Source: an uncultured Opitutales bacterium | Lineage (GTDB): Bacteria; Verrucomicrobiota; Verrucomicrobiia; Opitutales; JABDGR01 | DNA length: 64,000 nt | Reading direction: 5' to 3' | NCBI GenBank assembly: GCA_964562015.1 | Contig: CAZLRH010000008.1 | Span: forward strand, 26,500 to 90,499 | Shown here: positions 19,579 to 36,603 of the stretch, in pieces | Layout of the letters: every line of letters starts with the position of its first letter | Position numbering within the stretch: the stretch's first letter is position 1 | Made by a program: the position numbers and the translations under genes | The notes under the pieces: model-generated | Seen by the model: the letters and a program-made list of their open reading frames with translations, nothing else | What the model was told of the DNA's origin: nothing | The model's database searches: none

Positions 19579-22500
19579 TCAGTTGCCGAGCGCCTTGTAA
19601 TACTGTTTCACGGCTTCCGAATATTTATCGGGCACGGGATCGCGGTCCACGGGCTGCAGCGCTTCGGGCTGTTCGCGCAAGGAAATTTCCTGGCGCAACT
19701 GGTTGCGCACGGCGTCGAGCGGCGCCATGACGCTGTTCTGCACGTCGCCCCACTGCGGGAGCTGGCTGTGCCGCTGGAAATTGCGGCGCATGTCCTCCGC
19801 GGCGATGCGCGCGGTGGCGACCTGCTGGCGCAAATCCGGCTGGTCGATCAAATTTTCGACCGTGCGCAGGCGGTCGGCCCAGTCGACATAATTGCCGCCC
19901 GTGAGCGGTCCGCCATTCGCGGTCTGGTTGCCGCCATTGTTAAATTGGTTGGCCAAATTGTTGATGCCGGCGACTCCGCCTTCGCCGCCCCCGTATTCAT
20001 TGCCGCCGCCTCCGCCACCACCGCCGCCGCCGTTGCGCGGGCCGTTCTGGCCATTCCCGCCCGCACGCTGTCCGCCACCGGCGCGCTGACCGCCGCCGCG
20101 CTGGCCGTTGCCCTGGCCGTTGCCACCGCCCTGGCCGGCGGGAGCTTCTTGCAAAGCGATGTCGTCAGGATTAATGGGGCCGCCGTCCTGACCTTGCCCA
20201 TTTTGCCCCTGCCCACCTTGGCCGCCCTGCCCTTGTCCCTGGCCTTGGCCTTGCCCGCGACCTTGACCCTGACCCTGTCCACGACCTTGTCCCTGGCCCT
20301 GGCCTTGACCTTGACCTTGTCCGCGTTGACCCTGGCCGCCCTGGCCATTTTGAGCAAGTTCGCCACCGGCGCCTTGGCCTTCACCCTGGCCTTGGCCCTG
20401 TCCCTGACCTTGTCCTTGTCCTTGTCCTTGTCCTTGGCCCTGGCCCTGGCCTTGTTGACCACGACCTTGACCCTGACCCTGACCGCGCTGGCCTTGGCCA
20501 CCCTGGCCGTTCTGCGCAAGTTCATTACCGGCACCTTGACCTTGGCCCTGGCCCTGACCTTGGCCTTGACCCTGCTGGCCTTGTTGTCCCTGCCCTTGAC
20601 CCTGACCCGGTTGTTGGCCCTGGCCTTGGCCGGGACCTTCGCGAGCGACATCGGAATTAGCATCTTGCTGGCCATTGGCGCCGGGCTGACCGCCTTGGCC
20701 ACGCTGACCTTGGCCACCTTGCGCACCAGGTTCATTGCCTGCGCGCTGGCCTTGGCCAGCTTGACCATTGGCCGCCTGCTGGCCGCCGTTGCCCTGGCCA
20801 TTGGGGCCCTGCCGGGCGACATCTGAATTCGCATCCGGCTGGCCGTTCGCGCCGTTCTGCCCATTCGCTCCGCGCGGTTGATTGCCAGGCTGGGTGCCGT
20901 TCTGCGCGTCCCCGCCGTTGGGGTTCGCGCCGATTTGCGCGGCCGCATCGGGCGCCGCGGCGCGCTCCTGTTCGAGCTGTTGCGCGAGGTCGCTGAGTTC
21001 GTTTTGGGCAAAGCGCATGGTGGCGGTCTCGTCGCCGAGGACGGAATCCGCCGCGCGATCGAGCGCCTGGCGCAGTTGCGTGAAATTTTGGGCGACGCCG
21101 TTTTGCGCATCGCGTGATTGCTGGACGAAGCCGCGGCGCAAAAGGTCGGAGGCGGTCTGCAATTGCTGGTCGGGATTGGCGGTGCTCTGGCTGCGCTGGC
21201 GCAGGAGGTCGTAAAGCTGGGTGTGGAGGTTGGGCTCGCTGGTCTCGCTGGCGTCAGTGACCTGGCGGACCTCATTCATCAAATTGTTGAAATTCGTGCG
21301 CTGCTGGTCGAGCGTCTGGACGAGTTGCTGGCGCGCGGGCGAATCGTCGAGCGTGCGCTGGTTGCCGGAATCCATCTGGTTGAGCGCGGTCTGGGCCTGC
21401 TGCTGGGTGTCGTCCAACTCGCGGGCCTGGCGGCGGATTTCGCGCATCTGGTCGGCGAACTCACTCGAGTTTTGCGCCTGCAACTGGTCGCGGGTCTGGT
21501 TCAGTTGGTCCTGCGCGCGGGAACCGGAGGCGAGCGCCTGCGAAACCTGGCCCTGCTGGGTCTGGTCGGCCTCGCGCTGCATGTCCTGGCGGGCTTGGTC
21601 GAGCTGGTCGCGGGCCTGCTGGGTTTGGTCACCGGCGGGAAGATTGTCGAGGTTCTGGCGCAATTCATCGAGGTCGTTGAGCATCTGGCGCTGGTCTTCC
21701 TCCAGGCGGGACAACTGGCGCTGCAATTCCTGGCGCGTTTGGTCGTCGCGCGCGGCGGCGAGGGCGGTCTGCAAATCCCGCATGCGCTGGTTGGCGTCTT
21801 GCTGGCGGCGGGCGAGGTCACTGAGGCGGCTTTGCGCCTGCAACTGCTGGCGCTGCTGGTCCTGCTGGTTTTGCGCCTGCGTTTCCTGCTGGTAACGATT
21901 CTGCTGCTGGTTGAAGCGAAGTTGATCCAACTGCTGCTGATTGCGCTGACGCTGCGGCTGGCCCTGGCCCTGGCGCGCCTGCTGCACGCGGTTTTCGCGC
22001 GGCTGCATCCGTAACAACGCCTGATAAGCGCCCTGCGCGCCCGTCCACGCGGCGGCGAGCGGCGCGAGGGATTTTTTATCCCCGGCCTCGGCGAGCCCGT
22101 CGGCCGCCTGCTTCATATACTTGGCGGCTTCCGCGCCGGCGGCGACCAGGCGAGGATCAGTCAAATCCGCCTGGGCTTCCTCCAACATGCCCTGGGCTTG
22201 CAACTGGCTGTCGTGCAGGGCGCTGACATCGATGTCAAAATTCGGACCCATCGTGCCGGTCTGGCGCAAATGGAAAATGGCGATGGAAATCTGGCGCTGC
22301 ATCTCAAGTAGTGAATCCTGCTGCTGGCCCTGCTGGCCGCCCGCGGCGGCCGCACCACCGCCGCCGCCGTCGCCCGCGGACGCCTCGCGGTAAATTTCAT
22401 CAAAGGGCCGCACCTCGGCAAAAAACTCATCCGTCGTCACGCGGCGCACCTGGCCGTCGGGGCCGAGGTCGTCAGCGTAGGCAAAATATGTGACCAACTG

Positions 22501-23919
22501 GTCGGGCTGGAGATTGTGGGACTCGAGCGAGAGCAGGTATTCGAAATTCGCCTGCACCCGGCTGGTGGCGGCGGGGTCGCGCAAAGAAGTGTACGTCGGC
22601 TCTTCCGCACCGATGCTGAAGGCGAAACCATAATCCACCAGGCCGAAATCATCGCGGGCTTCAGCCTGGAAACGCATTTCCTGCAAGGCCGAAACCTCCT
22701 GGTCGCCGCGCGGGAAAGTCAGGCGGATGGTGGGCGGGTCGTTGGGACGGGCAGTGATGCGGATGTCGTAGCGCGTCTGGTTGGCGCGGCCCTTGTCGTC
22801 CTTGAGTTCAAGCTGGTAAGTGTGCGATTGATCGACGGTGAAATTCCAGTTGAAAACGGTGCGGTCGCTGTTGGAGGGCGTGAGCGTGAGGGTGGAGTTG
22901 TCGGTGTCGCGCAGGACGGCGCTGGCGACGGGCTTGTTCATGGTCAGCTCGTACTTCACCTCGGTGCCGACGACGGCGCTGAGGCGACGCGTGTTTTTCA
23001 CCGTCTGGTCCGCCAGGCCGGTGAAGGCGGGATAATGCAAGGAGGCGTCGGAGCGGATGAGCCCGGGCAGCTCGTACACCGTCAGCCGGTAATCCGCGGA
23101 CGGCGTGCCTTCGTAGTCGATATGGTACGTGATATTATTCGATACGTTGGGGAGGGTGTAGGCAAAAATGGGGTCCGACAGGCTGCGGGCCATGGCGGCG
23201 TGGTTAGCCTTGCTGTCGGCGCCGGTCCAAGAGAGCTGCACGTCACGGGGCACGCGCTTTTCAAACCGGGCCGCGATGACAACCGTTGTCCCGCGCAGGA
23301 TGTCCGCGTCGCCGGGTGTGATTTGCACATCCGGCACCTGGGCCACCGGAATCGCCGCCGCGCCCTGTTTCCAATGCACGAGGCTCGGCACAACCTGCAC
23401 AAAGGCCATCATGGCGACGAGGATGGCAAATCCAAAGGCCGCCACCTGTGCGGTGAAAAGCTTCCGGGCCTTGGACTGCGGCGTGCCGGGCCAATCGTTC
23501 CGCCAGCCGTGGTGCAAGGCGGTGCCAATGACCCGCTGCTGGAGAAAATGGTAACCGCCCTTTTGGTCGGGCTTTTGCTCGATGGCGGTGCGCAGCGCCA
23601 GCCGCAGTTCCGGGAATTCCACCTCCACCACCAGCGCGGCCTCGGCCAGGTCGAGCTTATCTTTCCGCGCGACTTGATAACCCCGCACAAAGGTGCCGGC
23701 GAAAACCACCACCAGCGCGGGAAAAACGTAGGGGGTGAAATCTTCCGACACCGAACGCAACGCCAGCAAAATCATGCCCAAGCCCGCCACCATGGACCAG
23801 CGAATGACGGCCCGGCGGTACAACCGCATCGCGCGCTGCTCGACCGCCACCGCGTGCAGTTTTTCATACAGCCGGTTGACGAGCGCAGTCGGGGGAGGCG
23901 GAGGCAGCGTGGCGGGCAT
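19579..23919 (-). CDS. 1446-aa membrane-anchored protein: Ig-like-rich region, Q-rich coiled-coil-like segment, G/Q/N low-complexity and (GQ)n tract (DUF4175-like architecture)
   Basis: Start set at MPATLPPPPP (ATG 23919), 18 nt after the upstream stop codon (23940-23942). TM helices near the N-terminus, then long beta-rich segments. The 21250-22000 stretch is Q/R/D-rich and 19975-20940 is G/Q/N-rich. The C-terminus is ordinary (...PVPDKYSEAVKQYYKALGN). Confidence 0.7.
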   Translation of the reverse strand: MPATLPPPPPTALVNRLYEKLHAVAVEQRAMRLYRRAVIRWSMVAGLGMILLALRSVSEDFTPYVFPALVVVFAGTFVRGYQVARKDKLDLAEAALVVEVEFPELRLALRTAIEQKPDQKGGYHFLQQRVIGTALHHGWRNDWPGTPQSKARKLFTAQVAAFGFAILVAMMAFVQVVPSLVHWKQGAAAIPVAQVPDVQITPGDADILRGTTVVIAARFEKRVPRDVQLSWTGADSKANHAAMARSLSDPIFAYTLPNVSNNITYHIDYEGTPSADYRLTVYELPGLIRSDASLHYPAFTGLADQTVKNTRRLSAVVGTEVKYELTMNKPVASAVLRDTDNSTLTLTPSNSDRTVFNWNFTVDQSHTYQLELKDDKGRANQTRYDIRITARPNDPPTIRLTFPRGDQEVSALQEMRFQAEARDDFGLVDYGFAFSIGAEEPTYTSLRDPAATSRVQANFEYLLSLESHNLQPDQLVTYFAYADDLGPDGQVRRVTTDEFFAEVRPFDEIYREASAGDGGGGGAAAAGGQQGQQQDSLLEMQRQISIAIFHLRQTGTMGPNFDIDVSALHDSQLQAQGMLEEAQADLTDPRLVAAGAEAAKYMKQAADGLAEAGDKKSLAPLAAAWTGAQGAYQALLRMQPRENRVQQARQGQGQPQRQRNQQQLDQLRFNQQQNRYQQETQAQNQQDQQRQQLQAQSRLSDLARRQQDANQRMRDLQTALAAARDDQTRQELQRQLSRLEEDQRQMLNDLDELRQNLDNLPAGDQTQQARDQLDQARQDMQREADQTQQGQVSQALASGSRAQDQLNQTRDQLQAQNSSEFADQMREIRRQARELDDTQQQAQTALNQMDSGNQRTLDDSPARQQLVQTLDQQRTNFNNLMNEVRQVTDASETSEPNLHTQLYDLLRQRSQSTANPDQQLQTASDLLRRGFVQQSRDAQNGVAQNFTQLRQALDRAADSVLGDETATMRFAQNELSDLAQQLEQERAAAPDAAAQIGANPNGGDAQNGTQPGNQPRGANGQNGANGQPDANSDVARQGPNGQGNGGQQAANGQAGQGQRAGNEPGAQGGQGQRGQGGQPGANGQQDANSDVAREGPGQGQGQQPGQGQGQGQQGQQGQGQGQGQGQGQGAGNELAQNGQGGQGQRGQGQGQGRGQQGQGQGQGQGQGQGQGQGQGQGQGEGQGAGGELAQNGQGGQGQRGQGQGQGQGQGQGRGQGQGQGRGQGQGQGQGQGGQGGQGQNGQGQDGGPINPDDIALQEAPAGQGGGNGQGNGQRGGGQRAGGGQRAGGNGQNGPRNGGGGGGGGGGNEYGGGEGGVAGINNLANQFNNGGNQTANGGPLTGGNYVDWADRLRTVENLIDQPDLRQQVATARIAAEDMRRNFQRHSQLPQWGDVQNSVMAPLDAVRNQLRQEISLREQPEALQPVDRDPVPDKYSEAVKQYYKALGN
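20215..20640 (-). repeat. Imperfect hexanucleotide microsatellite encoding (Gly-Gln)n, nested in about 165-bp higher-order repeats
   Basis: The plus strand reads ccttg(a/g)cc / ccctg(a/g)cc arrays. The units ...ctggccattttgagcaagttcgccaccggcgcc (about 20341) and ...ctggccgttctgcgcaagttcattaccggcacc (about 20504) mark two long repeats. Confidence 0.9.
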
Positions 23920-23939
23920 GGCGGAGGTGGGTTTAAAAG

Positions 23940-26042
23940 TTAGGCCGCCGGGCCGGAAAGCGGCTGCGCTTCGCGGCGGGCCAGGACCAGGGAATAGAGG
24001 CTTTCCAAGGCTAGAATGGCTGCAACTGTAACCAACAGCCAGCGCCAAAGTTTCTGCCGGTTTTCGAGCGCGGGCGCGAGTTCATTTTGCGCCACGGCGG
24101 GGGCCGCCGACGCGGCGGGCGCGGCGCCGGTGGCGCCGGGATGCAGGGGCACGCCCATCTTTTCAAAACTGTCGAGGGAAATGAGGTTGATGCGGCTTTC
24201 CGCGGAGGGCACTTGCAGCGCGACTTCGCGGGTGCTGTCGCCTTCCTGAATTTGATAAAGACCGGGCTGCGTGGGCGGCTGGCCTTGCCAGGCGGCGCCG
24301 GCATCGAGCGCAGTCCGCCATTGGGCCCCGGCGCTGTCCACCAGATGCGCGGCCTCGCTCACTTCCGCGACGGTGGGCCGGGCCGCGCCGCCGACCGCGC
24401 GCTCGAAGAACGATTGCAGCCACGGCACAAACTTGGTGGACAAAACCCACTGGCCCGCGACGGGCGCCCAGTCGCCGCCCCACACCACTTCGCGTCCCTG
24501 GCCCACCGTGGCCTCGAGGATGGCGGGCGAGGCGTCGTCAAACCGCGCGACGACCGCGACCTTCGAGCCCGCGGGCAGGGAAACGGATTGCGGCTGCCAG
24601 AAACGGATATGAGAAAAATCGCTGTAGCGCGGATCCGCAAAAAGGGAAAACAGCGGGTGTTGAAAATCCACCTGGCCGATGAGGGCGTCGCTGCGCGCAG
24701 TGGAGAGCGATTTCCAACCGGTTTCCCCGGCCAGCGCCGCCGCCGTGTCCACCATCGCGGGCTCATTTAAGAGCACGATGGCGAAGGCCCCGGCCTCAAG
24801 GCGGGCGCGGACGGAAGCAGCCACCTCAGCCGACAGTGGCGCAGCGACGATGATGACCTCCTTGGGCGCGCCGGGCTGGGGCGGAGCCGCTGGCGCAGTG
24901 GGTTTGGTCATATCGCCCAAGGTCAGTTTGACGACTGGATCTTTCCAGCCGGCGGTGGCGCGTTCGAGGTAATAGCGCGCGTGCTTGAGGTCGTTCGCGT
25001 CGTGCGCGCCATAGTAAGTCAGGTTAACGTCGCGCGGGGGCATGCGCACGAGCCAGACCGTGTTGTCGTAGGGTTCGTTATCACCCTTTAATTCCAAACG
25101 CCATGGGCCGCTGGTGTTGGCCGGCACCGGGACGAGGGCGACTTCGGCGTCATCGGCCGGTACCTTGAGGTCTTCCGGGGCACCGAGGGCCCGATTCGTT
25201 TTCGCGTCGTAAAGCTGAAGCTGGAGCGACGACGACGCGTTGTCGTGGTTCTGGAAAACCCGCACGCGCACCGCCGGGCCGGAGCCGGTGTCGGCGGCCC
25301 AGCCGAGCCATTGCAGTCCGGCGTTGCCTTTTTGGTCGGGGTTGACCTGTTCCAAATCCACTTCCGCGCGCGGCGGCCAGGACAAGCCGGCGAGCCCCGC
25401 CACATGCGAGCCTTCGGCAAAATCAGACACCACCACGAGTTTGCGCTGCGCGGAGGTGTCGGCGGCCTCGGTCATCTGCTCCCACTGATTGATGGCGTTT
25501 TCAAAGGCGGTATCGAGGCGGGTGACGCCCCACCCCGCGGTCAACGGCTGGAGGACGGCGCGGACCAACGCCGGGCGCTCGGCGGCGGCGGTCTTCTTCC
25601 ACTGCTCGCGGCTGATGAGTTCGGTCACGCTATCGCCGACGGACAAAAGGACGAACTGGTCCTGCACCTTGAGGCCGCCGGCGAGGTCGGAAATCTTTTT
25701 CTTCGCGGCGTCCCACAATCCGGCGCGCTGCATCGAGGCGCTGACATCCAGCACGGCGACGATGTTTTGCGGTGTGCCGGCATTCTCCAGCGTGGGCACG
25801 TGAAAGCGCAGGTAAGGCCGGGCAAACCCAGCCGCCAGCGCCGCGACGATCAGGCAGCGCAGCAAAAGCAGCCACGGATGCTGAATGCGGTTGCGGCGCG
25901 TGAGCACCGGCGGGGATTCCTCGAGAAACCGCAGGGTGCTGAACGGCACGCGCTGGCGCGTCGCCCGGCGGATCAGGTGGGCGATAATGGGGCCGGCCAC
26001 CAGGGCGATGCCGGCCAGAAACCAGGGAGTGAGAAAACTCAT
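23940..26042 (-). CDS. BatA_N (N-terminal double-TM aerotolerance-regulator domain) + VWA-like protein
   Basis: MSFLTPWFLAGIALVAGPIIAHLIRR...RFLE...RIQHPWLLLLRCLIVAALA is the classic BatA N-terminal double-TM motif. IVAVLDVSASM is VWA MIDAS-like. The start overlaps the DUF58 stop (ATGA 26039-26042). Confidence 0.75.
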   Translation of the reverse strand: MSFLTPWFLAGIALVAGPIIAHLIRRATRQRVPFSTLRFLEESPPVLTRRNRIQHPWLLLLRCLIVAALAAGFARPYLRFHVPTLENAGTPQNIVAVLDVSASMQRAGLWDAAKKKISDLAGGLKVQDQFVLLSVGDSVTELISREQWKKTAAAERPALVRAVLQPLTAGWGVTRLDTAFENAINQWEQMTEAADTSAQRKLVVVSDFAEGSHVAGLAGLSWPPRAEVDLEQVNPDQKGNAGLQWLGWAADTGSGPAVRVRVFQNHDNASSSLQLQLYDAKTNRALGAPEDLKVPADDAEVALVPVPANTSGPWRLELKGDNEPYDNTVWLVRMPPRDVNLTYYGAHDANDLKHARYYLERATAGWKDPVVKLTLGDMTKPTAPAAPPQPGAPKEVIIVAAPLSAEVAASVRARLEAGAFAIVLLNEPAMVDTAAALAGETGWKSLSTARSDALIGQVDFQHPLFSLFADPRYSDFSHIRFWQPQSVSLPAGSKVAVVARFDDASPAILEATVGQGREVVWGGDWAPVAGQWVLSTKFVPWLQSFFERAVGGAARPTVAEVSEAAHLVDSAGAQWRTALDAGAAWQGQPPTQPGLYQIQEGDSTREVALQVPSAESRINLISLDSFEKMGVPLHPGATGAAPAASAAPAVAQNELAPALENRQKLWRWLLVTVAAILALESLYSLVLARREAQPLSGPAA

Positions 26043-26983
26043 CGTTGGGTGCGACGGCGAATGACGCGGCGCGAGGCGTGCGGCTGGATGAGTTCGAGCA
26101 GCACGCGGTCGAGCGGACTGTCCGTGGACGCCTGCTGGTAAGTGACGCCGCGGCGCTCGAGGGCGGCGCGGACTTCGGTGTTGTGGGCGTCGAGCCGGGC
26201 GCGGTAGGCGGTGCGGGCGCGCACGGGATCCACATACAAACTGCGGCCGGATTCCATGTCCTCCCACAACGCGGCGGAGCCGAAATCCAGGGTCAGCTCG
26301 GCGGGGTCGAGCACTTGCAGGGCGCGCACATCGTGACCGGCGGCGGCCAGGTGGCCGAGCTGGTCGCTCCACTCCGCGACAGGCGAGAGAAAATCGGACA
26401 GCAGAAAAACCAGGCTGCGCCGGCGGCACAACATGGCCGCCTGCTCGAGGGCGTGGCCCAGCTTGGTGTCATTGCCGGCCGGTTCGCGCTCGAGCATCGC
26501 CAGAATGCGGCGGAAATGGCCGGGCCGCCAGCGCGGCGGCAGGTATTCGCGCATTTCGCCGTCGAAAAGCCCGAGCCCCACGATATCCCGCTGCTGGTTG
26601 AGGAAAAACGCGAACGTGGCGGCGAGCGTGCGGGCGTAATCGGCCTTCGTCCAGCCCAGCGAACCGAAGAGCATCGAGCGGCTCACGTCCACCAGAAACA
26701 GACAGCAAAGATTGGTCTCCTCCTCGAATTTTTTCACGAACACGCGGTCCGTGCGGGCCAGCACGCGCCAGTCGAGATACCGCAAATCATCGCCGGGGCT
26801 GTACTGGCGGTACTCGGTGAATTCGACAGAGAAACCGGAATATGGGCTGCGGTGCAGGCCCGACCACATGCCCTCGACCAGCACGCGTGCGCGCAATTCG
26901 AGATCCCGAATCGCAAAGAGCGCCTTCGGGTCCACGCCCTTGGCAAGCGGGGCGGGTGCGGGGATGGGCTCTATAGATGTCAT
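26039..26983 (-). CDS. DUF58 domain protein (VWA-like, MoxR partner)
   Basis: GFSVEFTEYRQYSPGDDLRYLDWRVLARTDRVFVKKFEEETNL is the DUF58 signature. Confidence 0.9.
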   Translation of the reverse strand: MTSIEPIPAPAPLAKGVDPKALFAIRDLELRARVLVEGMWSGLHRSPYSGFSVEFTEYRQYSPGDDLRYLDWRVLARTDRVFVKKFEEETNLCCLFLVDVSRSMLFGSLGWTKADYARTLAATFAFFLNQQRDIVGLGLFDGEMREYLPPRWRPGHFRRILAMLEREPAGNDTKLGHALEQAAMLCRRRSLVFLLSDFLSPVAEWSDQLGHLAAAGHDVRALQVLDPAELTLDFGSAALWEDMESGRSLYVDPVRARTAYRARLDAHNTEVRAALERRGVTYQQASTDSPLDRVLLELIQPHASRRVIRRRTQR

Positions 26984-27013: not shown

Positions 27014-27490
27014 TTACAGTTCACTGTCAGGCGTCTCGGTGACAGGAATTTGCGCTGTAGCCAGGGTGTTGTCTTCGTGGAGAAATCTCTCAAGAAGAGA
27101 GATCAGAGTTTCCAAACCCAACCAGTGTACCGGCGCGCCCAACCACCAAGAAACCTTCAAATCAAGCCCGCCACTGGAAATTTCCACTTTGGTTGAATGT
27201 CCATCACAGCCAAACGTTTGGTTGGCCCAAATGCCTATTGTCAATACGTCCATCAAACACCGGACTGCTTTTGCCTCCTCGCGGGAGAGCTCTTTCTGAC
27301 GCCAGGGACGGTGCCATGCCGACTTATATCCCTCGAATTTTCTGAAATCCTCCGCAATATAGTACGCTTCATCACCGTTCACATATCGTGAAGCCAGCAC
27401 TAAAACAGTCTCGCCCTGAAAACTCTCAGACTTTGTCACCTTGATGAGAGGATGTTCCAGTAAAGATTCGTCAATGGCCTCGGTGATCAT
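27014..27490 (-). CDS. Hypothetical protein, low-GC orphan inserted between MoxR and DUF58
   Basis: 158-aa ORF co-oriented with the operon, with 39-nt and 30-nt gaps to its neighbours. I recognise no family motif. Line 27061-27120 is 28/60 G+C against 39/60 for line 26881-26940. Confidence 0.5.
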   Translation of the reverse strand: MITEAIDESLLEHPLIKVTKSESFQGETVLVLASRYVNGDEAYYIAEDFRKFEGYKSAWHRPWRQKELSREEAKAVRCLMDVLTIGIWANQTFGCDGHSTKVEISSGGLDLKVSWWLGAPVHWLGLETLISLLERFLHEDNTLATAQIPVTETPDSEL

Positions 27491-27529: not shown

Positions 27530-28558
27530 TCACACATCCTTCGGAATCGCATCGACGAGCTTTTGGATGATTTGCTCGACGGAAACCCCGTCGGCCTCGG
27601 CGCGGTAATTGAGGAGGATGCGGTGACGGAAGACGGGGGCGGCCAGGGCGCGCACGTCGTCGCCGTTGGCGTGGGAGCGGCCCTGCCAGAGTGCGCGGGC
27701 CTTGGCGCCAATGACGAGCGCCTGCGCGGCGCGGGTGCCCGCACCCCAGTTGACCCAGTTGTTGATGAATTCCGGGGCGTGCGGCCGGCGCGGGCGCGTG
27801 GCCACGGCCAGGCGCACGGCGTAACGCACCACGGCTTCGGCCACCGGCACGCGGCGCACGAGTTCGTGAAATTGCACGACATCCTCCGCGGAGAAAACCC
27901 CGTTGATAGGTTCGGGCTGGCGCGAGGTCGTCTGCGTGACGACGGCAATTTCGTCGGCCTCGGGGAGATAATCGATGAGGACGTTGAAAAGAAAACGGTC
28001 GAGCTGGGCTTCGGGCAGCGGATACGTGCCCTCCATTTCGACGGGGTTCTGCGTGGCGAGGACGAAGAACGGCTCGGCCAAAACGTGGCGCACCCCGGCG
28101 GCGGTGACCTGGTGCTCCTGCATCGCTTCGAGCAGCGCGGCCTGCGTCTTCGGCGGCGTGCGGTTGATTTCGTCGGCCAGGATGATGTTGGCGAAAATGG
28201 GCCCGCGCACGAAGGTCAGGTGGCGGCCCTTCTCCGTTTCGGTGAGAATCTCGGTGCCAGTGATGTCCGCGGGCATCAAGTCCGGCGTGAACTGAATGCG
28301 CTGGAACTGGAGCTGGAAAACCCGGGCGACGGATTTGACCAGGAGGGTCTTGGCCAGACCCGGCGCACCGGTGACAAGGCAGTGGCCGCCAGCGAGCAGG
28401 GCGAGCATCAGTTGCTCGACCACGTCACGCTGGCCCACGATGACCTTGCCCAGTTCGGTTTCAATTTTTTCGCGGCCGGCCTGCAGGCGCTCGAACGCGG
28501 CTTGTTCGGGGGAGTTTGGGAGGGTTTCGACGGGCATAAAATTTGAGATGAAGGTCAC
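27530..28558 (-). CDS. MoxR-family AAA+ ATPase
   Basis: Walker A GAPGLAKT, Walker B ILADEINR, and the LLEAMQE...ATQNP...EGTYPLPEAQLDRF block are all MoxR/AAA_3 hallmarks. GTG start at 28558, 3 nt after the upstream stop. An alternative ATG lies at 28537. Confidence 0.93.
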   Translation of the reverse strand: MTFISNFMPVETLPNSPEQAAFERLQAGREKIETELGKVIVGQRDVVEQLMLALLAGGHCLVTGAPGLAKTLLVKSVARVFQLQFQRIQFTPDLMPADITGTEILTETEKGRHLTFVRGPIFANIILADEINRTPPKTQAALLEAMQEHQVTAAGVRHVLAEPFFVLATQNPVEMEGTYPLPEAQLDRFLFNVLIDYLPEADEIAVVTQTTSRQPEPINGVFSAEDVVQFHELVRRVPVAEAVVRYAVRLAVATRPRRPHAPEFINNWVNWGAGTRAAQALVIGAKARALWQGRSHANGDDVRALAAPVFRHRILLNYRAEADGVSVEQIIQKLVDAIPKDV

Positions 28559-28561
28559 CGC

Positions 28562-29794
28562 TCAGTGCGTCATGGCATAGAACAGGATGTTGATGAAAAC
28601 GGGATAGGCAAACGGCTCGGAGAAAGTCTTGAAATAACTGAGATCGGCGCCCTCGCGTTCCCAGCCGTCGCCGAAATCATTGTTATGGCTGATAAACACC
28701 ATAACCCGTCCCTTGTCGTCACTAATCGTAAAGAAATGCGAGTCGTGGGTCTCTTGCTCATAGGGCTTGTTGTCCTCATAGTACATGCCCCGGCGCGTGA
28801 AAAAGCCGATGGAGGGCATCTGCGGCTTTTGCTTGAGGTCGAAAATGTTGTGGAAAATCGGGTGCTCGAGGCCGATTTCCACGGGGCGCCGGTCGGGAAA
28901 GATGCGCCCGAGTTGCTCGAAGATGTTGTTGCGCTCGTTGTCACCCCAGTTGTCGTCCATCATCAAAAATCCGCCGTTGAGCAGGTAGCGGCGCAGGTAG
29001 GTTACTTCCTCGTCCCGGAACACCAGCCGGCCGGGCTCGACGATATAAACAAAGGGATAGTTCGCGAGATTCTGCGGGGTGATGTGGAAGGTGTTGATGC
29101 CCGGCGTGACGCGCAGGCTCGTGATTTGGTGCAAGCGGAACGACAAATCGAAATCCGCGTCCGGGGTGTCGGTGGTCCAACGGCCACCGGTGCGGTAATT
29201 GCCATTGGCCATGGGGCCGCCAAAAGAATCGTATTCGAGGCGGGCAAACGTGAAAGCGTCCTGCGCGAATTCCGGCTCGAGGGTCCAGGCGAGGTCGGCC
29301 GGTTCTTCACCGTGATGTCCGTTCTCGGTGACGAAGCCCGGATTGTCAGCGCCAAAACCACCGCCACCGCGCCGCCCTCCGCCACCACCGCCAAAGCCTC
29401 CACCACCGCCACCTCGACGCCCGCCACCGCCACCGGGGCCGCCGAAGCCACCGCCCGGGCCGCCACCGCCACCGCCGCGCCGCCCGCCGCCGCCGGGTCC
29501 GCCGCTGAAACCGCCACCATTCGGCGGACCATTCGCGCCAGGAGGCGGATTATTCAAATCTTCGGTTGCGCCCGAGTAAGCGCCGCCATTGGGGCCACCC
29601 GCATTCGGGCCGCCGCGACCGCCAGCACCGGGACCGCCGCGACCCGCGCGACCGCCGGGCGGGCCGAGGCCGGGAGCCGTGCCCGGATCACTGAGGGGGC
29701 TATTCTGCCCCATGACCCATGGACCAAGCAAAACTCCGCCCAAGGCCGCCCAAGCGAGGGCCAATAACATGCGGGGTAATTTGCGGGGGCTCAT
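28562..29794 (-). CDS. DUF4159 domain protein, paralog 1, with about 115-aa Gly/Arg-rich (RGG-like) N-terminal region
   Basis: Signal/TM segment, then GGGGRRGGGGGG tracts. The core follows: FTFARLEYDS, DTPDADFDLSFRLHQITSLRV, PFVYIVEPG, LLNGGFLMMDDNWGD, and the terminal INILFYAMTH. Confidence 0.75.
   Translation of the reverse strand: MSPRKLPRMLLALAWAALGGVLLGPWVMGQNSPLSDPGTAPGLGPPGGRAGRGGPGAGGRGGPNAGGPNGGAYSGATEDLNNPPPGANGPPNGGGFSGGPGGGGRRGGGGGGPGGGFGGPGGGGGRRGGGGGGFGGGGGGRRGGGGFGADNPGFVTENGHHGEEPADLAWTLEPEFAQDAFTFARLEYDSFGGPMANGNYRTGGRWTTDTPDADFDLSFRLHQITSLRVTPGINTFHITPQNLANYPFVYIVEPGRLVFRDEEVTYLRRYLLNGGFLMMDDNWGDNERNNIFEQLGRIFPDRRPVEIGLEHPIFHNIFDLKQKPQMPSIGFFTRRGMYYEDNKPYEQETHDSHFFTISDDKGRVMVFISHNNDFGDGWEREGADLSYFKTFSEPFAYPVFINILFYAMTH
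29345..29690 (-). repeat. Low-complexity Gly/Arg/Pro/Asn-coding tract (RGG/FG-like)
   Basis: Runs of ccgccaccgcc on the plus strand. Encodes ...GGGGRRGGGGGGPGGGFGGPGGGGGRRGGGGGGFGGGGGGRRGGGGFG... Confidence 0.85.
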
Positions 29795-29863
29795 GGGGTA
29801 AGCGGCTCGTCTCGCCGTCCACGCGAATAAACCAGAAGGCGCGGACGAAGACGATGGGTAAAC

Positions 29864-30796
29864 TTAATGCGTCATCGTGTAAAAGAGAATGTTGATCATC
29901 ATCGGGTAAGCTTGGGGTTCGGAAAAAAGGTCGAAGTAACGGTGGTCATCGCCCTCGTGCTCCCAGCCGTCGCCGTAGTGGTTGTTGCGGCAAATGAGCA
30001 TCATCATGCGGCCCTTATCGTCGCTGACCGCGTAATAATGCGGGTCGTGGTCGGTGGTGTAATCCGCCGGATCGTAGGCCTGGCCGGTGCGCAGGAAAAT
30101 GCCCACGCTGGGCATCTGCGGGCGATACCGGAATTCGAACACCTGGTGAAAAATCGGGTGGCTCAGCGGCAGCTCGACTATTTCGCGGTCGGGAAAGATG
30201 CGTTTGACCTCCGCAAAAACGTGCGCCCACTGGCTGTCGCCCCAAAAATCCTCCGCCATGACAAAGCCGCCATTGGTCATGTACGTGTGTAAGTACCGGA
30301 CCTCCTCGTTGGTCAAATTCATCCCCGCCGTGGCGGCCAGGTACACGAAAGGATGCGCGGCCAGATTCTCCGGCGTGATGGTGATGTATTTGAAACCGGG
30401 ATGCACTTTCAGGCTTGTCACCTGATATAGCCGGAAGCCGAGATTGAGGTCGGCATCGGGGGTGTCATCGTCCCAAAAGCGCCTCCCGAAACCGCCGCCG
30501 CTGGAGCTGTAGATGAGCCGGGCAAAAGTGAAAACGTCCTCCTTGAAATCCGGATGAATGGCCTTGGTCATGAGTTCGATCAAGTCGTCCTCGTCGGCCG
30601 TCGTGCGGGTGGCGCGGGAAAGCGGGTCGCGCCCGCCCGGGCCGCCCCGGCCGAGCTGGCCCATTCCGGGCGGAGTCACCGGCGTCATTGTCCGCGCACT
30701 TCCGGCCTGCACGACCGGAGCAGATAAACCCAGCAGCCCCGCCGACAGCAGCGCGGCGAGCCAGGCCCGGCGGCGGAAAGAGTTGGAGGTGTGCAT
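29864..30796 (-). CDS. DUF4159 domain protein, paralog 2
   Basis: Signal peptide. Shares FTFARLIYSS, DTPDADLNLGFRLYQVTSLKV, PFVYLAATAG, MTNGGFVMAEDFWGD and the terminal INILFYTMTH with its neighbours. Confidence 0.75.
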   Translation of the reverse strand: MHTSNSFRRRAWLAALLSAGLLGLSAPVVQAGSARTMTPVTPPGMGQLGRGGPGGRDPLSRATRTTADEDDLIELMTKAIHPDFKEDVFTFARLIYSSSGGGFGRRFWDDDTPDADLNLGFRLYQVTSLKVHPGFKYITITPENLAAHPFVYLAATAGMNLTNEEVRYLHTYMTNGGFVMAEDFWGDSQWAHVFAEVKRIFPDREIVELPLSHPIFHQVFEFRYRPQMPSVGIFLRTGQAYDPADYTTDHDPHYYAVSDDKGRMMMLICRNNHYGDGWEHEGDDHRYFDLFSEPQAYPMMINILFYTMTH

Positions 30797-30835
30797 GGGG
30801 CGGGGAAACGGGGGGGCGAAATTCTCCAGGACGGT

Positions 30836-31723
30836 TCAGTGCGTCATGGTGTAGAAAATGATATTAATCATCATGGGGTAGGCCTGCGGCTCGGAAAAGG
30901 CGGTGAAGTAGCGCGGGTCGTCGCCCTCGCGCTCCCAGCCGTCGCCAAAATCATTGTTGAAGCTGATGAAGACCATCATGCGGCCCTTGTCGTCGAAGAT
31001 GCCGTAGAAATGGGAATCGTGCGTCTGTTTGTTGTAATCGCCCCAATGGCGCTCCCAGGTGATGCCCTCGTTGAGATAAATCTCGATGGCCGGCATTTGC
31101 GGCTTTTGCTTGAGGTCGAAGACGGTGTGAAAAATCGGGTGGCTGAGGTCCAACTCCACGAACTTGCGGCCCGGAAATACCCGGTGCAACTGCTCTTCGA
31201 GGTTGTCCCACTGGTTGTCGCCCCAAAAATCATCCACCATGAGAAACCCGCCGTTCAACAAATAGTCGCGTAGCGCGGTGACTTCGGACTGCCGGAAGAC
31301 GAGGCTGCCGGGTTCGACGATGTAAACGAAGGGGAAATTCGCGAGGTGCGCGGGATCGATGGGGATGTCGGTTTCCTTGGGGCGTACGCGCAGGCTCGTC
31401 ATCTGGTGGAGCCGGAAAGCGAGGTTGAAGTCGGCATCGGGCGTGTCCACCGTCCAACTGTTGCCTCCCCCGCGATAGTAGCCGTTGGACGTGCGGCCGC
31501 CGGGGTCCGAGGCATACATCAGCCGCGCGAAGGTGAAGAGGTCGTCCTTGAACGCGGGTTCAACGGGCCAATCCAGCCGGGGGTCGTCGAGCGACGGATC
31601 AAACCGCCGGCCATAACCGCCACCGCCGCGGCCGCCAAATTGCGCCCACAGCGCAGCGGACACCAGCACCCCGGCCAGCATAAAGCCGGCCCGGCGAAAA
31701 TGGACTGCGTTTAAAAAGCGCAC
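30836..31723 (-). CDS. DUF4159 domain protein, paralog 3
   Basis: Shares FTFARLMYAS, DTPDADFNLAFRLHQMTSLRV, PFVYIVEPG, LLNGGFLMVDDFWGD and the terminal INIIFYTMTH. GTG start at 31723; an alternative ATG lies at 31681. Confidence 0.75.
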   Translation of the reverse strand: MRFLNAVHFRRAGFMLAGVLVSAALWAQFGGRGGGGYGRRFDPSLDDPRLDWPVEPAFKDDLFTFARLMYASDPGGRTSNGYYRGGGNSWTVDTPDADFNLAFRLHQMTSLRVRPKETDIPIDPAHLANFPFVYIVEPGSLVFRQSEVTALRDYLLNGGFLMVDDFWGDNQWDNLEEQLHRVFPGRKFVELDLSHPIFHTVFDLKQKPQMPAIEIYLNEGITWERHWGDYNKQTHDSHFYGIFDDKGRMMVFISFNNDFGDGWEREGDDPRYFTAFSEPQAYPMMINIIFYTMTH

Positions 31724-31730
31724 AAAAATT

Positions 31731-34484
31731 TCACGGAGTGTTGGTCACCGGCGTGGCGGGCGGCGTGGCGGCAGGAACAGCCGGGGCCGGCGCGGGGGCA
31801 GGCGGCAGGGCGGCGAGCAATTCGTAGGCGGCGCGGAAGCGCGGCGCATCCTCCAACGCTTGGAGCACCTGCCGGCGGGCCGCTTCGACATCGCTCGGCT
31901 GCAACTGGCGGGCCAGGCGGTAATGCACGTCGGGCGCATCCGGCGGATCGAGTTGAAGAAGCGCGTTGCCGGCCTCAATGGCAGCCTTGGCATCGCCATT
32001 GTGTTCGTTGGCGGCCAGCAATTGACGCCACGGCGTCGGCGCGAGCGGATTGATGGCCAGCCACGCCTCGCTCCAGCGGTGCACCGCCGGCCAATCTTGT
32101 TCGACTTGGGCAATGTCCAGCAGGCGCGTAACGGTGTTGAGGGAATCCCCTTCGTGCTCGGCGACCGCCGTCAGCGCGGCCTTTTCACCCGCCGTGTCGT
32201 TGAGCTTGGCGCAGGCCGCGGCGAGCAGGAGGTAGGGATTTTGCGCGCCGGGAACGTAGAAACCCTTGGTGGTGAGTTCCTGCAATTGCTGGCGCACGGC
32301 GGTCCACTCTTCCTTGTCGGCCAGCGCGCGGATTTGCGCGAGGCGGTCGTAATAATTGTTGGGATTGGGCGGCGGGGCCGGGGTGTTTTCGTCGGTCGGC
32401 GGCTTCGGCCGGGTGAAATCGAGCCCGGCAAAAGTCTTGGTCGCACGGTCGCGCGCATACTCGGCAAACTGGGTGTCCAGTTTGTCCAAGGGCGCGAGGT
32501 TCGCGGCCAGTGATTCGTTCATGTTCTTGCCCGCGCCGAGGTCATGGAGGACGGCCTTGAGGCGGTCGAACCCGTACCGCTCAATGAGAAATTGCACGAC
32601 GAGCGACGATTCATAGTAGGCGAACTGCATATCCGCCGAGCTCTTGGCCTTGATAAAGGCGGCGCTCATGCCGCTGATCGGCTGCATTTTGCCGTCGAGG
32701 ATGCGGTCGTGGTAATCGAGCGACATCTTCATGCCCCAGGCGGGATCGGCCAATTGCTCCTCATAGACGGAAATGCCCTCGCTCAACCACCGCGGCATGC
32801 GGTTGCGCGTCATGGTCAGCGTGATGACGTGGACGAATTCATGCCAGAGCACGTCCTTCCAATTCGCGCCGGAAGAGGCCGGGCTATTGATGGTCACGAC
32901 CGGGCCAAAGGTCACCCCGAGAAACCCGCCGATGTCGGGCATCCCGAAGGTGCGGACGGCGAAATCGTCGGGGTTGGGATAAATCTCGACGGTGGTGGGC
33001 AAATCGAGCGGCAGGCCGTACTTGGCCGTCATTTTCGTGCGCTCATCTTCGAGCATGGACAGCACGCGGTCGCCATATACCGGGGCCTCGGTTTGGGCCA
33101 TGCGAATGTTGAAATGCGGGCTGGTGATCGTGGTGAATTTATCCAACTGATCGTGCAGCGTGGTGAGATTGAAGGCCTCGATGTCGTAGGCGTCGTCGGT
33201 ATGGGCGCGGGTGGCCATCTCCCAGCCCTGTGATTCGAGGCCCATGCGGAGCAAATCCTGGGCGAGCTCGACGCGGGCGGGCGTGTTCTTGTCGTCAAAT
33301 TTGAGCGCCGAGGTTTCCGCCGAGGCGGCTTGAATAAAGCGGTAATTTTCGGCCAGCTTTTTGCCGATGAGGTAGTCCACCTGAGGATTAGTTTTCCAGG
33401 TGGAGAGGGCCTTGTCGCGATATTCGGCGGCCTTGGCGGTGTCGTTGTCAAGCGTGGCCATGGCGGAAAGCAGCGCAAGGGCGGTGGGTTCGGTGGGATT
33501 GAGCGCGAGGATCTTGGCGAGCTGGTCGCGGGCGTTGTCGTATTGCTCGCCGTCGATTAAATTTTCGGCGAGCAGCAGGAGCGTGGGAATGTGCTTCGGA
33601 TTGATGCCGAGCGCGGCGGAGGCAAAACTGCCGTACTCGTCGTCATGACTGGCACGGTGGGCGGCGGCGAGACCGTAGAGCATGTCGGCGTCGTCGGGAA
33701 AAGCCGTGGCGCCGGCTTGATAGGTGCGGGCCGCCAGCGCGTAGTCGTGCTTGTCCATGGCCAGCTTGCCGATGGCGAGAAAGGCGTCGCGCACGGGCGG
33801 GGTCGCGCGCTGGCCGAGGCGCAGAAAATTTTCGAGGACAAGTTTCGGTTCGGCGCCGAGAATGAGGGCGGCTTCGCCCAGCGAGGTGACAAAACCCGGG
33901 TCGCGCTCGTAACGGCCGCGCGACTGGATGATGCTGCTGATGGCGGAGAGCTGGCGCGCCGCCTCGTCGGGCTTGCCGGCAAACAAATCCGCCTGGCGGG
34001 CCAGCAACCGCAAACGGATGCTGTCACTATTATATTGGACGCCCTGATTGAGGGCCGCTTCCGCCTCGGAGTAATTGCCCAGCGTCAGCAGAACTTCGCC
34101 GTTCAACCGCCACCAGGCTTCACTATAATGATTGGCCTTGGCCCCAGCATCGGCGGCCTTGAGGGCACCCGCGTAATCGCCGGTGCGATACATTTGAATG
34201 GCCGCAGCCAAGGCGGGATCGACGGGGGCCACGGGCGTGGCCGCAGGCAGCGAGGCCGCGGCCGTCGCCGCGTTGGGTGCCACGGCGGGACGATTGGAAA
34301 TTGCCGGGGTGGAAGGCGGCGGCGGGCGCGACGTTGGGGGCGGCGGCGGGGGAGGCGGAGGCGGCACGGGCGCGGGCACGGTGGCCGCCGGCAAATCGAT
34401 AAAATTTAAGACCAGGCAAATTACGCCCAACCATCCGGGGTACTTGCGCAAGGCGGGGGAACGGCGCGAGCGGCAGGGTATCAT
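31731..34484 (-). CDS. Membrane-anchored poly-Pro / TPR-repeat protein with HExxH (gluzincin-like) peptidase-type domain
   Basis: Start reset to MIPCRS (ATG 34484). TM segment YPGWLGVICLVLNFI and a P10 run. TPR-like helices lie on both sides of VLWHEFVHVITL...WLSEGISVYEE (HExxH plus a downstream Glu). Confidence 0.65.
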   Translation of the reverse strand: MIPCRSRRSPALRKYPGWLGVICLVLNFIDLPAATVPAPVPPPPPPPPPPTSRPPPPSTPAISNRPAVAPNAATAAASLPAATPVAPVDPALAAAIQMYRTGDYAGALKAADAGAKANHYSEAWWRLNGEVLLTLGNYSEAEAALNQGVQYNSDSIRLRLLARQADLFAGKPDEAARQLSAISSIIQSRGRYERDPGFVTSLGEAALILGAEPKLVLENFLRLGQRATPPVRDAFLAIGKLAMDKHDYALAARTYQAGATAFPDDADMLYGLAAAHRASHDDEYGSFASAALGINPKHIPTLLLLAENLIDGEQYDNARDQLAKILALNPTEPTALALLSAMATLDNDTAKAAEYRDKALSTWKTNPQVDYLIGKKLAENYRFIQAASAETSALKFDDKNTPARVELAQDLLRMGLESQGWEMATRAHTDDAYDIEAFNLTTLHDQLDKFTTITSPHFNIRMAQTEAPVYGDRVLSMLEDERTKMTAKYGLPLDLPTTVEIYPNPDDFAVRTFGMPDIGGFLGVTFGPVVTINSPASSGANWKDVLWHEFVHVITLTMTRNRMPRWLSEGISVYEEQLADPAWGMKMSLDYHDRILDGKMQPISGMSAAFIKAKSSADMQFAYYESSLVVQFLIERYGFDRLKAVLHDLGAGKNMNESLAANLAPLDKLDTQFAEYARDRATKTFAGLDFTRPKPPTDENTPAPPPNPNNYYDRLAQIRALADKEEWTAVRQQLQELTTKGFYVPGAQNPYLLLAAACAKLNDTAGEKAALTAVAEHEGDSLNTVTRLLDIAQVEQDWPAVHRWSEAWLAINPLAPTPWRQLLAANEHNGDAKAAIEAGNALLQLDPPDAPDVHYRLARQLQPSDVEAARRQVLQALEDAPRFRAAYELLAALPPAPAPAPAVPAATPPATPVTNTP

Positions 34485-34529: not shown

Positions 34530-34688
34530 CAACGCCGAAGCCGCGCCCTCATCCCCCAAGCACCGCTTTATAGACTCCGGCAAAGCGATTTTGTTACAGG
34601 ACGGCTGATTTTCGTGCTGTCCACAAGAAAAATTGCCTGCCGGGGAAACTTGCCCCCGCGGACATTTGTCCCCACGCTGGATTTCCAC

Positions 34689-35888: not shown

Positions 35889-35901
35889 TTTTTTAACCGC
35901 C

Positions 35902-36603
35902 ATGTTTGACCCCGCTCCCCTGCTCGCCGTCTCGCCCAATCTCCTGCCTGAATTGCGCGACGGCTCGATCTTTTATATCATTCTAGCCCTCAGCATTGCG
36001 TTGCACGAATACGGCCACGCGAAGGCTGCCGACCTCGTCGGCGATCCCCTGCCCCGGCTGCAAGGGCGCGTCACCCTCGATCCGCTGGCGCACCTCGACC
36101 CCATCGGCACCGGGCTGATTCCGCTGTCGATGATTTTCATCCCCATCTTTATGCACATGCAGATGCCTTTCGCATTGATTGGTTGGGGCCGGCCGGTGCA
36201 GATTTCGCTGCCCCATCCGCGCACGCGCGTGCGCGATGAGATTCTGATTACCGTGGCCGGGCCGTTGATGAATGTGCTGATTGCGCTGGTGGTGACAGTC
36301 ATCAGTCGAATCCTGTTGGAGAGCCACACTATGGGTGAGCAGACCGAACGTTTTCTCAAGGAGACCATTTATCTGAATTGCGCGCTGATTGGCTTCAACC
36401 TCATCCCGCTGCCGCCGCTGGACGGCTCGCGGATTTTGCGGCACCTCGTCAACATGTCCGAGAGTACCTTCAACCATCTCGCGATGAACAGTTGGTGGAT
36501 TTTGCTTATCCTCATCAACCTGCAGCAATTCCAAATCCTGCTGGGCCGGCTCATCCATGCGATTGCGATGCCCTTCCTGCGGGCGTCGGGGATGCTGGGG
36601 TGA
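35902..36603 (+). CDS. M50-family (site-2-protease-like) zinc metalloprotease, minimal form
   Basis: HEYGH in the first TM helix and the FNLIPLPPLDGSRIL motif. 233 aa, polytopic, with no PDZ domain. Confidence 0.8.
   Translation: MFDPAPLLAVSPNLLPELRDGSIFYIILALSIALHEYGHAKAADLVGDPLPRLQGRVTLDPLAHLDPIGTGLIPLSMIFIPIFMHMQMPFALIGWGRPVQISLPHPRTRVRDEILITVAGPLMNVLIALVVTVISRILLESHTMGEQTERFLKETIYLNCALIGFNLIPLPPLDGSRILRHLVNMSESTFNHLAMNSWWILLILINLQQFQILLGRLIHAIAMPFLRASGMLG

Follow-up and report, generated by a model that had tools for sequence, protein, structure and literature searches.

Three old, divergent DUF4159 paralogs at the head of a conserved MoxR/DUF58/BatA operon in an Opitutales bacterium

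We analysed a 64,000-nucleotide stretch of DNA (the window) from an uncultured Opitutales bacterium (GenBank assembly GCA_964562015.1, contig CAZLRH010000008.1, positions 26,500 to 90,499). It carries, on the reverse strand, three consecutive genes of the DUF4159 family, here called D1, D2 and D3, directly upstream of a gene for a MoxR-type ATPase. An original prediction, made from the sequence alone, had described three consecutive open reading frames (ORFs) of 410, 310 and 295 aa with several sequence blocks in common, and all of these blocks were found as quoted. Each ORF holds one full-length Pfam DUF4159 domain (PF13709; E 1e-46 for D1, 3e-39 for D2 and 1e-43 for D3), with scores of 156, 135 and 146 bits, respectively, against a gathering score of 25.9 bits, and with matches running from model positions 1–8 to 202 of 202. 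No fourth DUF4159 copy was found within the 64-kb window. The spacers measure 39 nt between D1 and D2, 69 nt between D2 and D3, and 3 nt between the D3 stop and the MoxR start (28558). The D1 start codon is GTG; an alternative ATG at 31681 gives the 281-aa version called by public pipelines. The three start codons lie 927 and 1002 nt apart, placing all three genes in one reading frame, probably by chance (about 1 in 9).

The N-terminus of all three copies and of their homologs is a hydrophobic segment; it closes with AxA and a Q (Q28, at least 90% conserved), after which comes an Arg/Gly-rich linker. D1–D3 are predicted from this to be exported proteins. Export by the twin-arginine translocation route was considered for SFRRRAWL in D2 and FRRAGF in D1 and rejected, as homologs lack twin arginines. 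After the signal peptide, D1 has a linker of about 15 aa, D2 a Thr/Asp/Arg-rich one of 43 aa and D3 one of 147 aa; the linkers differ in the way that had been described for the N-terminal regions (short, Thr/Asp-rich and RGG-rich). The D3 linker is the longest among 50 homologs, for which the median is 16 aa; its 140–147 residues include 66 Gly, 18 Pro and 9 Arg, and it contains GGGGRRGGGGGG-type repeats, with imperfect tandem repeats at 29358–29495. The C-terminal INI(L/I)FY(A/T)MTH sequence is present in all three proteins as predicted, but the motif (INI.FYAMTH) is common to the entire DUF4159 family of the Planctomycetes–Verrucomicrobia–Chlamydiae (PVC) group and not peculiar to D1–D3.

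D1–D3 are old, intact paralogs. Over a core of about 240 aa, they show pairwise identities of 53–65% in protein and 61–66% in DNA. Pairwise synonymous divergence (dS) is 1.4–2.0, so that synonymous sites are saturated, and the ratio of non-synonymous to synonymous divergence (dN/dS) is 0.15–0.27; together these values indicate that the copies are old and not an assembly artefact. Each copy keeps all 35 columns that are invariant in a 57-sequence alignment including D1–D3. The longest exact DNA word common to the copies is 17–23 nt, and the D1–D2 arrangement is also present in a separate European Nucleotide Archive (ENA) assembly record. The original prediction had spoken of old copies retained under selection, which agrees with these figures; the near-identical DNA expected of a recent or assembly duplication was looked for as well, and the core identity of 61–66% is far from it. 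An array produced by misassembly, or one of pseudogenes, has virtually no chance of being the explanation: we found no point in its support, and it is refuted by the three full-length ORFs with intact domains, the ENA record and the divergence of the copies. Gene conversion among the copies was likewise rejected, since shared exact words reach only 17–23 nt and the similar C-termini are family-wide.

Related loci came from two pattern-based scans, one covering a single genome for each GTDB species and one covering metagenomes, and from each the 80 best matches were taken. Nearly all loci from the GTDB-species scan are labelled Planctomycetota or Verrucomicrobiota, and searches with the operon proteins of the window (tblastn) recovered the same gene order in most related loci. 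Copies were counted only where both the MoxR gene and the gene that opens the operon, encoding a tetratricopeptide repeat (TPR) protein fused to a peptidase domain (the TPR-peptidase), were visible (n = 72). The interval between these genes contains one DUF4159 copy in 68 loci, two in three (L001, L017 and L019), none in one and three in none. Two copies are also present in L127 and L150, whose contigs are truncated, and the closest D1 relatives that were looked up (L082 and L084; 63–66% identity) carry one copy each. The statement in the original prediction that such clusters more often carry a single DUF4159 gene is therefore supported by 68 of 72 intervals, and triple arrays as the common state, which were also looked for, occur in 0 of 72. 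Clusters as a rule carry a single DUF4159, which can be at the head of the operon or at its distal end (described below). The three-copy array is a rare, lineage-specific gene-family expansion, unique in this sample, and not a new kind of system.

Two-copy arrays elsewhere lie at 1471–3109 of L017, 801–2517 of L019, 133–1813 of L127 and 3492–4623 of L150. The two copies in L127 are each other's closest relatives (100% bootstrap), and the L017/L019 pair predates the split from the single-copy locus L078. Tandem duplication of DUF4159 has recurred in this operon, independently in L017/L019 and L127 and probably also in L150. Duplicates of the TPR-peptidase, MoxR, DUF58, BatA and DUF4175-like genes were searched for in the related loci, and none was found.

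Trees of the domain core resolve two subfamilies among the copies. Type B is monophyletic with 100% bootstrap support and includes D2, together with L001_1, L088 and L115. D1 and D3 belong with L001_2, L082 and L084 to a lineage (89–99% support) that we call A-prime and that is sister to type B; the clade of A-prime and B has 100% support. Type B is recognised by the signatures GDGWEHE, HDPHYY and WDDD(T/S)P, which D2 carries as GDGWEHE, HDPHYY and WDDDTP. Two substitutions separate 52 B from 90 A sequences, D258H (100% vs 100%) and R265H (98% vs 100%), both in the motif N(T/N)(D/H)xGDGWE(R/H)E. D3 and L001_2 share a further substitution, F166N (DDNWGD), at a site where 99% of 167 sequences have Phe, and both adjoin MoxR. 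This shared residue and shared position suggest orthology of D3 and L001_2 and loss of the D1 type from L001. The copies arose by two events, an old split of A-prime and B and a later A-prime duplication into D1 and D3. The "old triplication" that had been proposed was right as to age and wrong as to number, since D2 falls in the anciently separate type B.

A tree of concatenated MoxR, DUF58, TPR-peptidase and BatA proteins (1996 columns) places the window in a tight clade with 98.5% support. DUF4159 content varies within this clade: L115 and L088 have B, L082 and L084 have A-prime, L001 has B and A-prime, and the window has A-prime, B and A-prime. L085 is another close relative with the same operon and carries B only. 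The simplest reading of this pattern would be an ancestral tandem pair of A-prime and B with reciprocal losses, the window lineage having two A-prime copies.

Type B also occurs at the other end of the operon. In L166, L168 and L169, the sole DUF4159 gene is of type B and is the last operon gene (at about 19200–20400), with none at the head; the order is TPR-peptidase, MoxR, DUF58, BatA, a 545-aa gene, a 723-aa gene, GATase1_like, a 324-aa gene and DUF4159-B. This arrangement, which belongs to another verrucomicrobial lineage, was established by clustering of neighbours and look-ups of three full clusters. We considered whether type B is an orphan gene, as 28 of 32 lack MoxR within 2.5 kb downstream, and rejected the idea because it is usually the last gene of the same operon. 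The distal-B lineages (L012 and L166–L169) are far from the window clade in the operon-protein tree, yet their B genes are nested beside those of the window clade, and this disagreement of the two trees suggests that the DUF4159-B gene was transferred horizontally between lineages. Directly downstream of type B in L097 (1278–3116) and in seven other type-B loci is a gene for CCP_MauG, a di-haem cytochrome c peroxidase (median gap 25 nt, 8 loci). This adjacency may bear on the "aerotolerance" background of Bat operons.

D1–D3 stand at the head of an operon of about ten genes that is conserved across Planctomycetota and Verrucomicrobiota. The conserved order is TPR-Peptidase_MA, DUF4159, MoxR, DUF58, a BatA-type protein that carries a von Willebrand factor A (VWA) domain, a DUF4175-like protein, GATase1_like and a protein of 324–405 aa. 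Coordinates of these and of adjacent features are given in Table 1.

Table 1. Features of the window in and around the DUF4159 operon.
Feature	Coordinates	Strand	Remarks
TPR protein	34614-35888	+	divergent from operon
Peptidase_M50 protein	35731-36603	+	divergent from operon; ORF start overlaps preceding TPR ORF
TPR-peptidase (TPR + Peptidase_MA_2)	31731..34484	-	first operon gene; Pfam Peptidase_MA_2 E 6e-14 and several TPR families
D1	31723..30836 (30836..31723)	-	DUF4159 paralog, A-prime lineage, 295 aa; Pfam DUF4159 E 1.1e-45; predicted signal peptide and short Arg/Gly linker
D2	30796..29864 (29864..30796)	-	DUF4159 paralog, type-B subfamily, 310 aa; Pfam DUF4159 E 2.8e-39; predicted signal peptide and 43-aa linker
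D3	29794..28562 (28562..29794)	-	DUF4159 paralog, A-prime lineage, 410 aa; Pfam DUF4159 E 1e-42; adjoins MoxR
D3 linker	29300..29710	-	Gly/Arg/Pro-rich, low complexity; between predicted signal peptide and domain
MoxR-type AAA+ ATPase (AAA_3 + AAA_lid_2)	27530..28558	-	Pfam AAA_3 E 1.8e-62
orf158	27014..27490	-	158 aa; between MoxR and DUF58, outside conserved operon
DUF58 protein	26039..26983	-	VWA-like, DVSRS (DxSxS); Pfam DUF58 E 2.8e-53, VWA_2 E 1e-10
BatA-type membrane protein	23940..26054	-	Pfam BatA (PF07584) E 1e-19, VWA_2, VWA; TIGR02226 two_anch E 3e-19
DUF4175-like membrane protein	19579..23922	-	1447 aa; Pfam DUF4175 E 4e-6, below gathering score
GATase1_like (PF07090) protein	17131..19578	-	815 aa; Pfam E 1.7e-8, 34.8 bits vs cut-off 27
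405-aa protein	15998..17215	-	last conserved operon gene; no Pfam or NCBIfam match

The start of the TPR-peptidase gene was set at the ATG that gives a hydrophobic N-terminus; public pipelines call a shorter product of 820 aa from 34193. This gene is directly upstream of DUF4159 in 55 of the 73 type-A loci with enough flank. The window MoxR is 64–82% identical to the MoxR proteins of related loci. The BatA-type protein has an N-terminal domain with two transmembrane (TM) segments, a VWA domain with the metal ion-dependent adhesion site (MIDAS) motif DVSAS, a long region predicted to be periplasmic and a C-terminal TM segment; the TM-like segments are residues 7–25, 60–78 and 673–691, with a basic loop between the first two. 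The DUF4175-like ORF corresponds to two fused genes, which relatives have separately; it aligns to the 545-aa and 723-aa genes of L166 and contains a Gly/Gln repeat insert of about 190 aa with imperfect hexamer repeats at 20231–20574. GATase1_like has the equivalent position in L082 and L166–L169. The 405-aa protein is 45% identical to the product of the L166 324-aa gene, which directly precedes the distal DUF4159.

Between MoxR and DUF58, the window carries orf158. Its GC content is 49%, compared to about 65% in both neighbours; it has no match in Pfam, NCBIfam or PADLOC, and tblastn found no counterpart in more than 160 related loci. For these reasons it looks like a foreign insertion inside the operon. 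The same junction in L001 (11927–13322) holds unrelated genes, including one for a lipoprotein. No promoter-like site was found between the operon genes, and terminator-like sites were no more frequent than in shuffled sequence and lay inside ORFs, with no credible one between genes, which is consistent with a single transcription unit. The neighbourhood upstream of the operon is not conserved: an aminotransferase gene has this position in L082 and L084, and a cytochrome c gene in L166–L169 (preceding the TPR-peptidase gene in L166, L168 and L169). We found no description of the PVC operon in the literature on MoxR, DUF58 and Planctomycetes/Verrucomicrobia, and a paper on PVC genome content (PMC3542564) does not mention it.

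We used structure prediction and profile searches to investigate what a DUF4159 protein might do. An AlphaFold2 (AF2) model of D1 (mean predicted local distance difference test score, pLDDT, 84.4; predicted TM-score, pTM, 0.80) superposes on 4I66, a structural-genomics entry of Hoch_4089 from Haliangium ochraceum with no function assigned (Foldseek against PDB, E 2e-10, TM-score 0.77 normalised to the target). The next match has E 0.035, and Foldseek returned no other informative fold neighbour from PDB. A sequence profile of D1–D3 also finds 4I66 (E 1.4e-4), the sole significant sequence match among PDB entries. A signal peptide, an Arg/Gly-rich linker and an N-terminal strand are additions of the PVC proteins relative to Hoch_4089, which also lacks their invariant motifs DDFWGD and GDGWE(R/H)E. 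NCBIfam and PADLOC returned nothing for the DUF4159 proteins. Pfam puts DUF4159 in the Glutaminase_I clan on structural grounds only (PMC4702930), the fold class of class I glutamine amidotransferase-like proteins such as ThuA, GATase1_like and Glyco_hydro_42M; no link from DUF4159 to other clan members was found by HHsearch (PMC4702930) or Foldseek. A GATase1_like clan member is itself encoded in the window operon. We infer that DUF4159 has a flavodoxin-like fold of the class I glutamine amidotransferase type that lacks the catalytic cysteine. D1 and D3 contain no cysteine, the single one in D2 (C269) is on a different strand and is Ser in A-prime, and the elbow position after the central strand reads DDFWG. 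A Cys-dependent class I glutamine amidotransferase is therefore excluded.

A profile search of 1.84 billion cluster representatives gave 6293 DUF4159 relatives. Three of these proteins (P0141, P0144 and P0179; about 1100 aa) have an N-terminal Peptidase_M56 domain and a C-terminal DUF4159 that scores 240–320 bits against the PVC profile and follows the last TM-like segment. In P0141 and P0144 the HExxH motif is flanked by TM3 and TM4, and in P0179 it comes after the third TM-like segment, the last one detected. The P0141 gene is preceded, at a distance of 1 nt, by a gene for a Penicillinase_R (BlaI/MecI-type) repressor. L165 (234–3984) holds such a pair, a BlaI-type repressor gene and a gene for a Peptidase_M56 protein with a C-terminal DUF4159. 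The middle region of the fusions shows no similarity to any operon product and differs in P0179 from that of P0141 and P0144; this architecture may thus have more than one origin. The extracellular sensor of BlaR1, an enzyme-derived ligand binder, is the domain that follows the final TM helix. DUF4159 occupies this position in the fusions and, by analogy with BlaR1/MecR1–BlaI, is thus used as an extracytoplasmic module of a signalling protease, which suggests a binding or sensing role and agrees with the predicted export of D1–D3. D1–D3 themselves are free-standing secreted proteins with DUF4159 only and no M56, and they do not qualify as BlaR1/BlaI members as P0141, P0144 and P0179 do; the link is by domain sharing only.

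Our preferred interpretation, to which we give an even chance, is that an envelope system of the MoxR/DUF58/BatA-VWA kind uses D1–D3 as specialised subunits for binding or sensing in the periplasm. DUF4159 would be a periplasmic binding or sensor module rather than an amidotransferase, and the operon would encode an envelope-spanning MoxR system in which DUF4159 serves as a free binding subunit or a client in the periplasm. Neither MoxR nor DUF58 has a signal sequence, and both are predicted to be cytoplasmic. The positions of the three TM-like segments and of the basic loop place the BatA VWA domain (MIDAS DVSAS) and about 500 further residues, by prediction, in the periplasm; the BatA-like VWA domain of Borrelia BB0173 has been shown experimentally to face the periplasm (PMC5700661). 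The partners of DUF4159 would be the periplasm-facing parts of membrane proteins, with the BatA VWA/MIDAS domain and the TPR-peptidase as first candidates, and the MoxR–DUF58 chaperone pair would set the state of those proteins from the cytoplasmic side. MoxR–VWA pairs work as a chaperone with its co-chaperone, remodelling or maturing a client (PMC7159879, PMC8926400), and related clusters affect envelope integrity, stress tolerance or resistance to a pore-forming toxin (PMC5700661, PMC3557215, PMC8926400).

In the window, the single subunit would have been replaced by three specialised versions, with tethers of about 15, 43 and 147 residues and with changes at otherwise fixed residues (D258H and R265H in D2, F166N in D3), each of which probably binds a different ligand or partner or takes a different position. 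A bolder version of this proposal, which we consider very doubtful, would make the DUF4159 proteins the periplasmic input receptors of a PVC-specific envelope-spanning MoxR machine and D1–D3 three input channels. The channels would then serve different ligands, periplasm depths, or pH or metal dependence, as might be read from the tethers and from the Asp/Arg to His/His change in D2.

Several points weigh against the binding-subunit interpretation. The partners are assigned from co-location and co-conservation only. The M56 fusion leaves room for catalysis, the BlaR1 sensor being enzyme-derived, and an active site or a metal site could be built from the family's numerous invariant Asp, Glu and His residues. 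The copy-number sample was non-random (the best 80 matches per scan), signal-peptide cleavage was judged by eye and hydropathy and not with a dedicated predictor, and the domain-core trees are neighbour-joining trees with a simple distance correction. The branching order of D1, D3 and L001_2 has weak support (39–84%), unpolarised site counts are 23/23/20, and no polarised site was informative on the order of duplication. Finally, we found no experiments on any DUF4159 protein, the Pfam database paper being the sole one that we found to name DUF4159.

How the three copies divide their work can be explained in other ways. They may all do the same job, in which case the array would be a matter of dosage or partial redundancy, the remnant, slow to resolve, of duplications that relatives have by now trimmed to one gene. 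Within the window clade, reciprocal loss (L115 and L088 keep B, L082 and L084 keep A-prime and L001 keeps two copies) implies that either type suffices, and all catalytic-looking and invariant residues are common to D1–D3. However, saturated dS with low dN/dS implies long constrained retention of each copy, and the B-specific substitutions are fixed across 52 B sequences, the rare change at a 99%-conserved site is common to D3 and its L001 counterpart, and linker lengths differ tenfold. The His/His switch in B, F166N in D3 and the range of tether lengths thus argue that the copies are not simply redundant, and we regard redundancy as unlikely. Alternatively, D1, D2 and D3 could each have a distinct position in one complex of fixed stoichiometry. 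Purifying selection on all three in one tight, apparently co-transcribed unit would fit such an obligate hetero-oligomer, as would the finding that DUF4159 alone among the searched operon genes is duplicated, repeatedly. Assemblies of this kind often follow duplication of a homo-oligomeric subunit, and GATase1-like domains such as Glyco_hydro_42M serve as oligomerisation modules. Yet 68 of 72 loci run the operon with one DUF4159, and the close relatives have A-prime only (L082, L084), B only (L085, L088, L115) or both, so neither type is indispensable and the two would not be mutually dependent. There is also no protein with two DUF4159 domains in the best 150 of the 6293 relatives, though these would score highest, nor was one seen among the matches of one further homolog search. 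A hetero-oligomer is therefore unlikely, and alternative or additive subunits are more likely. Of the earlier proposal that the copies are differentiated and not redundant, the differentiation is plausible; the hetero-oligomer inferred from it has found no positive evidence.

A further possibility, distinctly unlikely in our judgement, is that DUF4159 proteins are periplasmic hydrolases or transferases that act through invariant Asp, His and Glu residues, with the paralogs working on different envelope substrates. This is favoured by the invariant residues D61, R67, D93, R104, D165, H195, Q209, D244, N256, D261, E264 and E266, by the D258H and R265H switch of type B, which could retune a site, by the enzyme-derived sensor of BlaR1 and by the fold in the Glutaminase_I clan (PMC4702930). 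Against it, a Cys nucleophile is lacking, the distant solved member Hoch_4089 has not retained the GDGWE.E and DDFWG motifs, and neither sequence nor fold shows similarity to characterised enzymes.

The operon is conserved across two large phyla without an assigned function, and we found no literature on DUF4159 beyond Pfam. The main results of this work are the rule of one DUF4159 per cluster at either end, two subfamilies with reciprocal loss, and the appearance of the domain as a C-terminal module of BlaR1-type proteins. The BlaR1-type fusions provide the first testable functional lead for DUF4159, as an extracytoplasmic binding or sensor domain. If the input-receptor version is true, it would give a function to a widespread operon of unknown role, and a receptor domain wired elsewhere to BlaR1-type proteases would constitute a new family of bacterial extracytoplasmic sensor domains. 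The window and its relatives (A-prime only, B only, or both) form a natural series in which to study the role of the subunit and whether one subfamily can replace another. As for the array of three copies, it elaborates, in one lineage, an annotated family in an annotated though uncharacterised operon and is of modest general significance.

Known systems with MoxR and VWA proteins resemble the operon to different degrees. The MoxR–vWA ternary conflict system (PMC7159879) was considered and rejected, as the window MoxR matches bpMoxR weakly (E 1e-11, compared to 1.8e-62 for AAA_3) and no third-component domain was found; Pfam detects no VMAP, iSTAND, FtsH or beta-propeller domain in the operon products, and a PADLOC scan of D1, orf158 and the 405-aa protein gave no match. 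Arc2 of Pseudomonas aeruginosa (PA4317–23), which protects the cell from the envelope-damaging toxin ColA (PMC8926400), is likewise a cluster of several genes, among them those for a MoxR-like ATPase and a VWA protein, but it is from a different phylum, no DUF4159 is mentioned for it (PMC8926400), and the likeness noted here is at the level of gene types.

The Bat-type operons, for which we compared B. fragilis batI, Leptospira bat, Borrelia bb0170-0176, Rhizobium leguminosarum RL3499-3502 and the Riemerella moxR cluster, share more with the window. MoxR (AAA_3), DUF58, a BatA-type VWA membrane protein and a TPR protein occur in one operon in both. In the window, the AAA_3 MoxR and DUF58 genes are on the same strand, separated by the inserted orf158, and the BatA double-TM domain is fused to a VWA domain with the MIDAS motif DxSxS (DVSAS). 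Bat-type operons have an envelope-associated role and a periplasm-facing VWA domain (PMC5700661), and the clusters have stress and envelope phenotypes (PMC3557215, PMC11834572). Of the proteins of the BatB/BatC/BatE and BatD types, the operon has a TPR protein, fused to Peptidase_MA_2; a second VWA membrane protein (BatB) was not found in it, and no operon product matches the BatD family in Pfam. DUF4159, the DUF4175-like protein, GATase1_like and the Peptidase_MA fusion are not among the domains listed for Bat-like operons (PMC5700661). Judged by its domains, then, the operon belongs with the Bat-type MoxR/DUF58/VWA/TPR clusters as their PVC variant, lacking a detectable BatD and equipped with extra components, one of which the window carries in triplicate.

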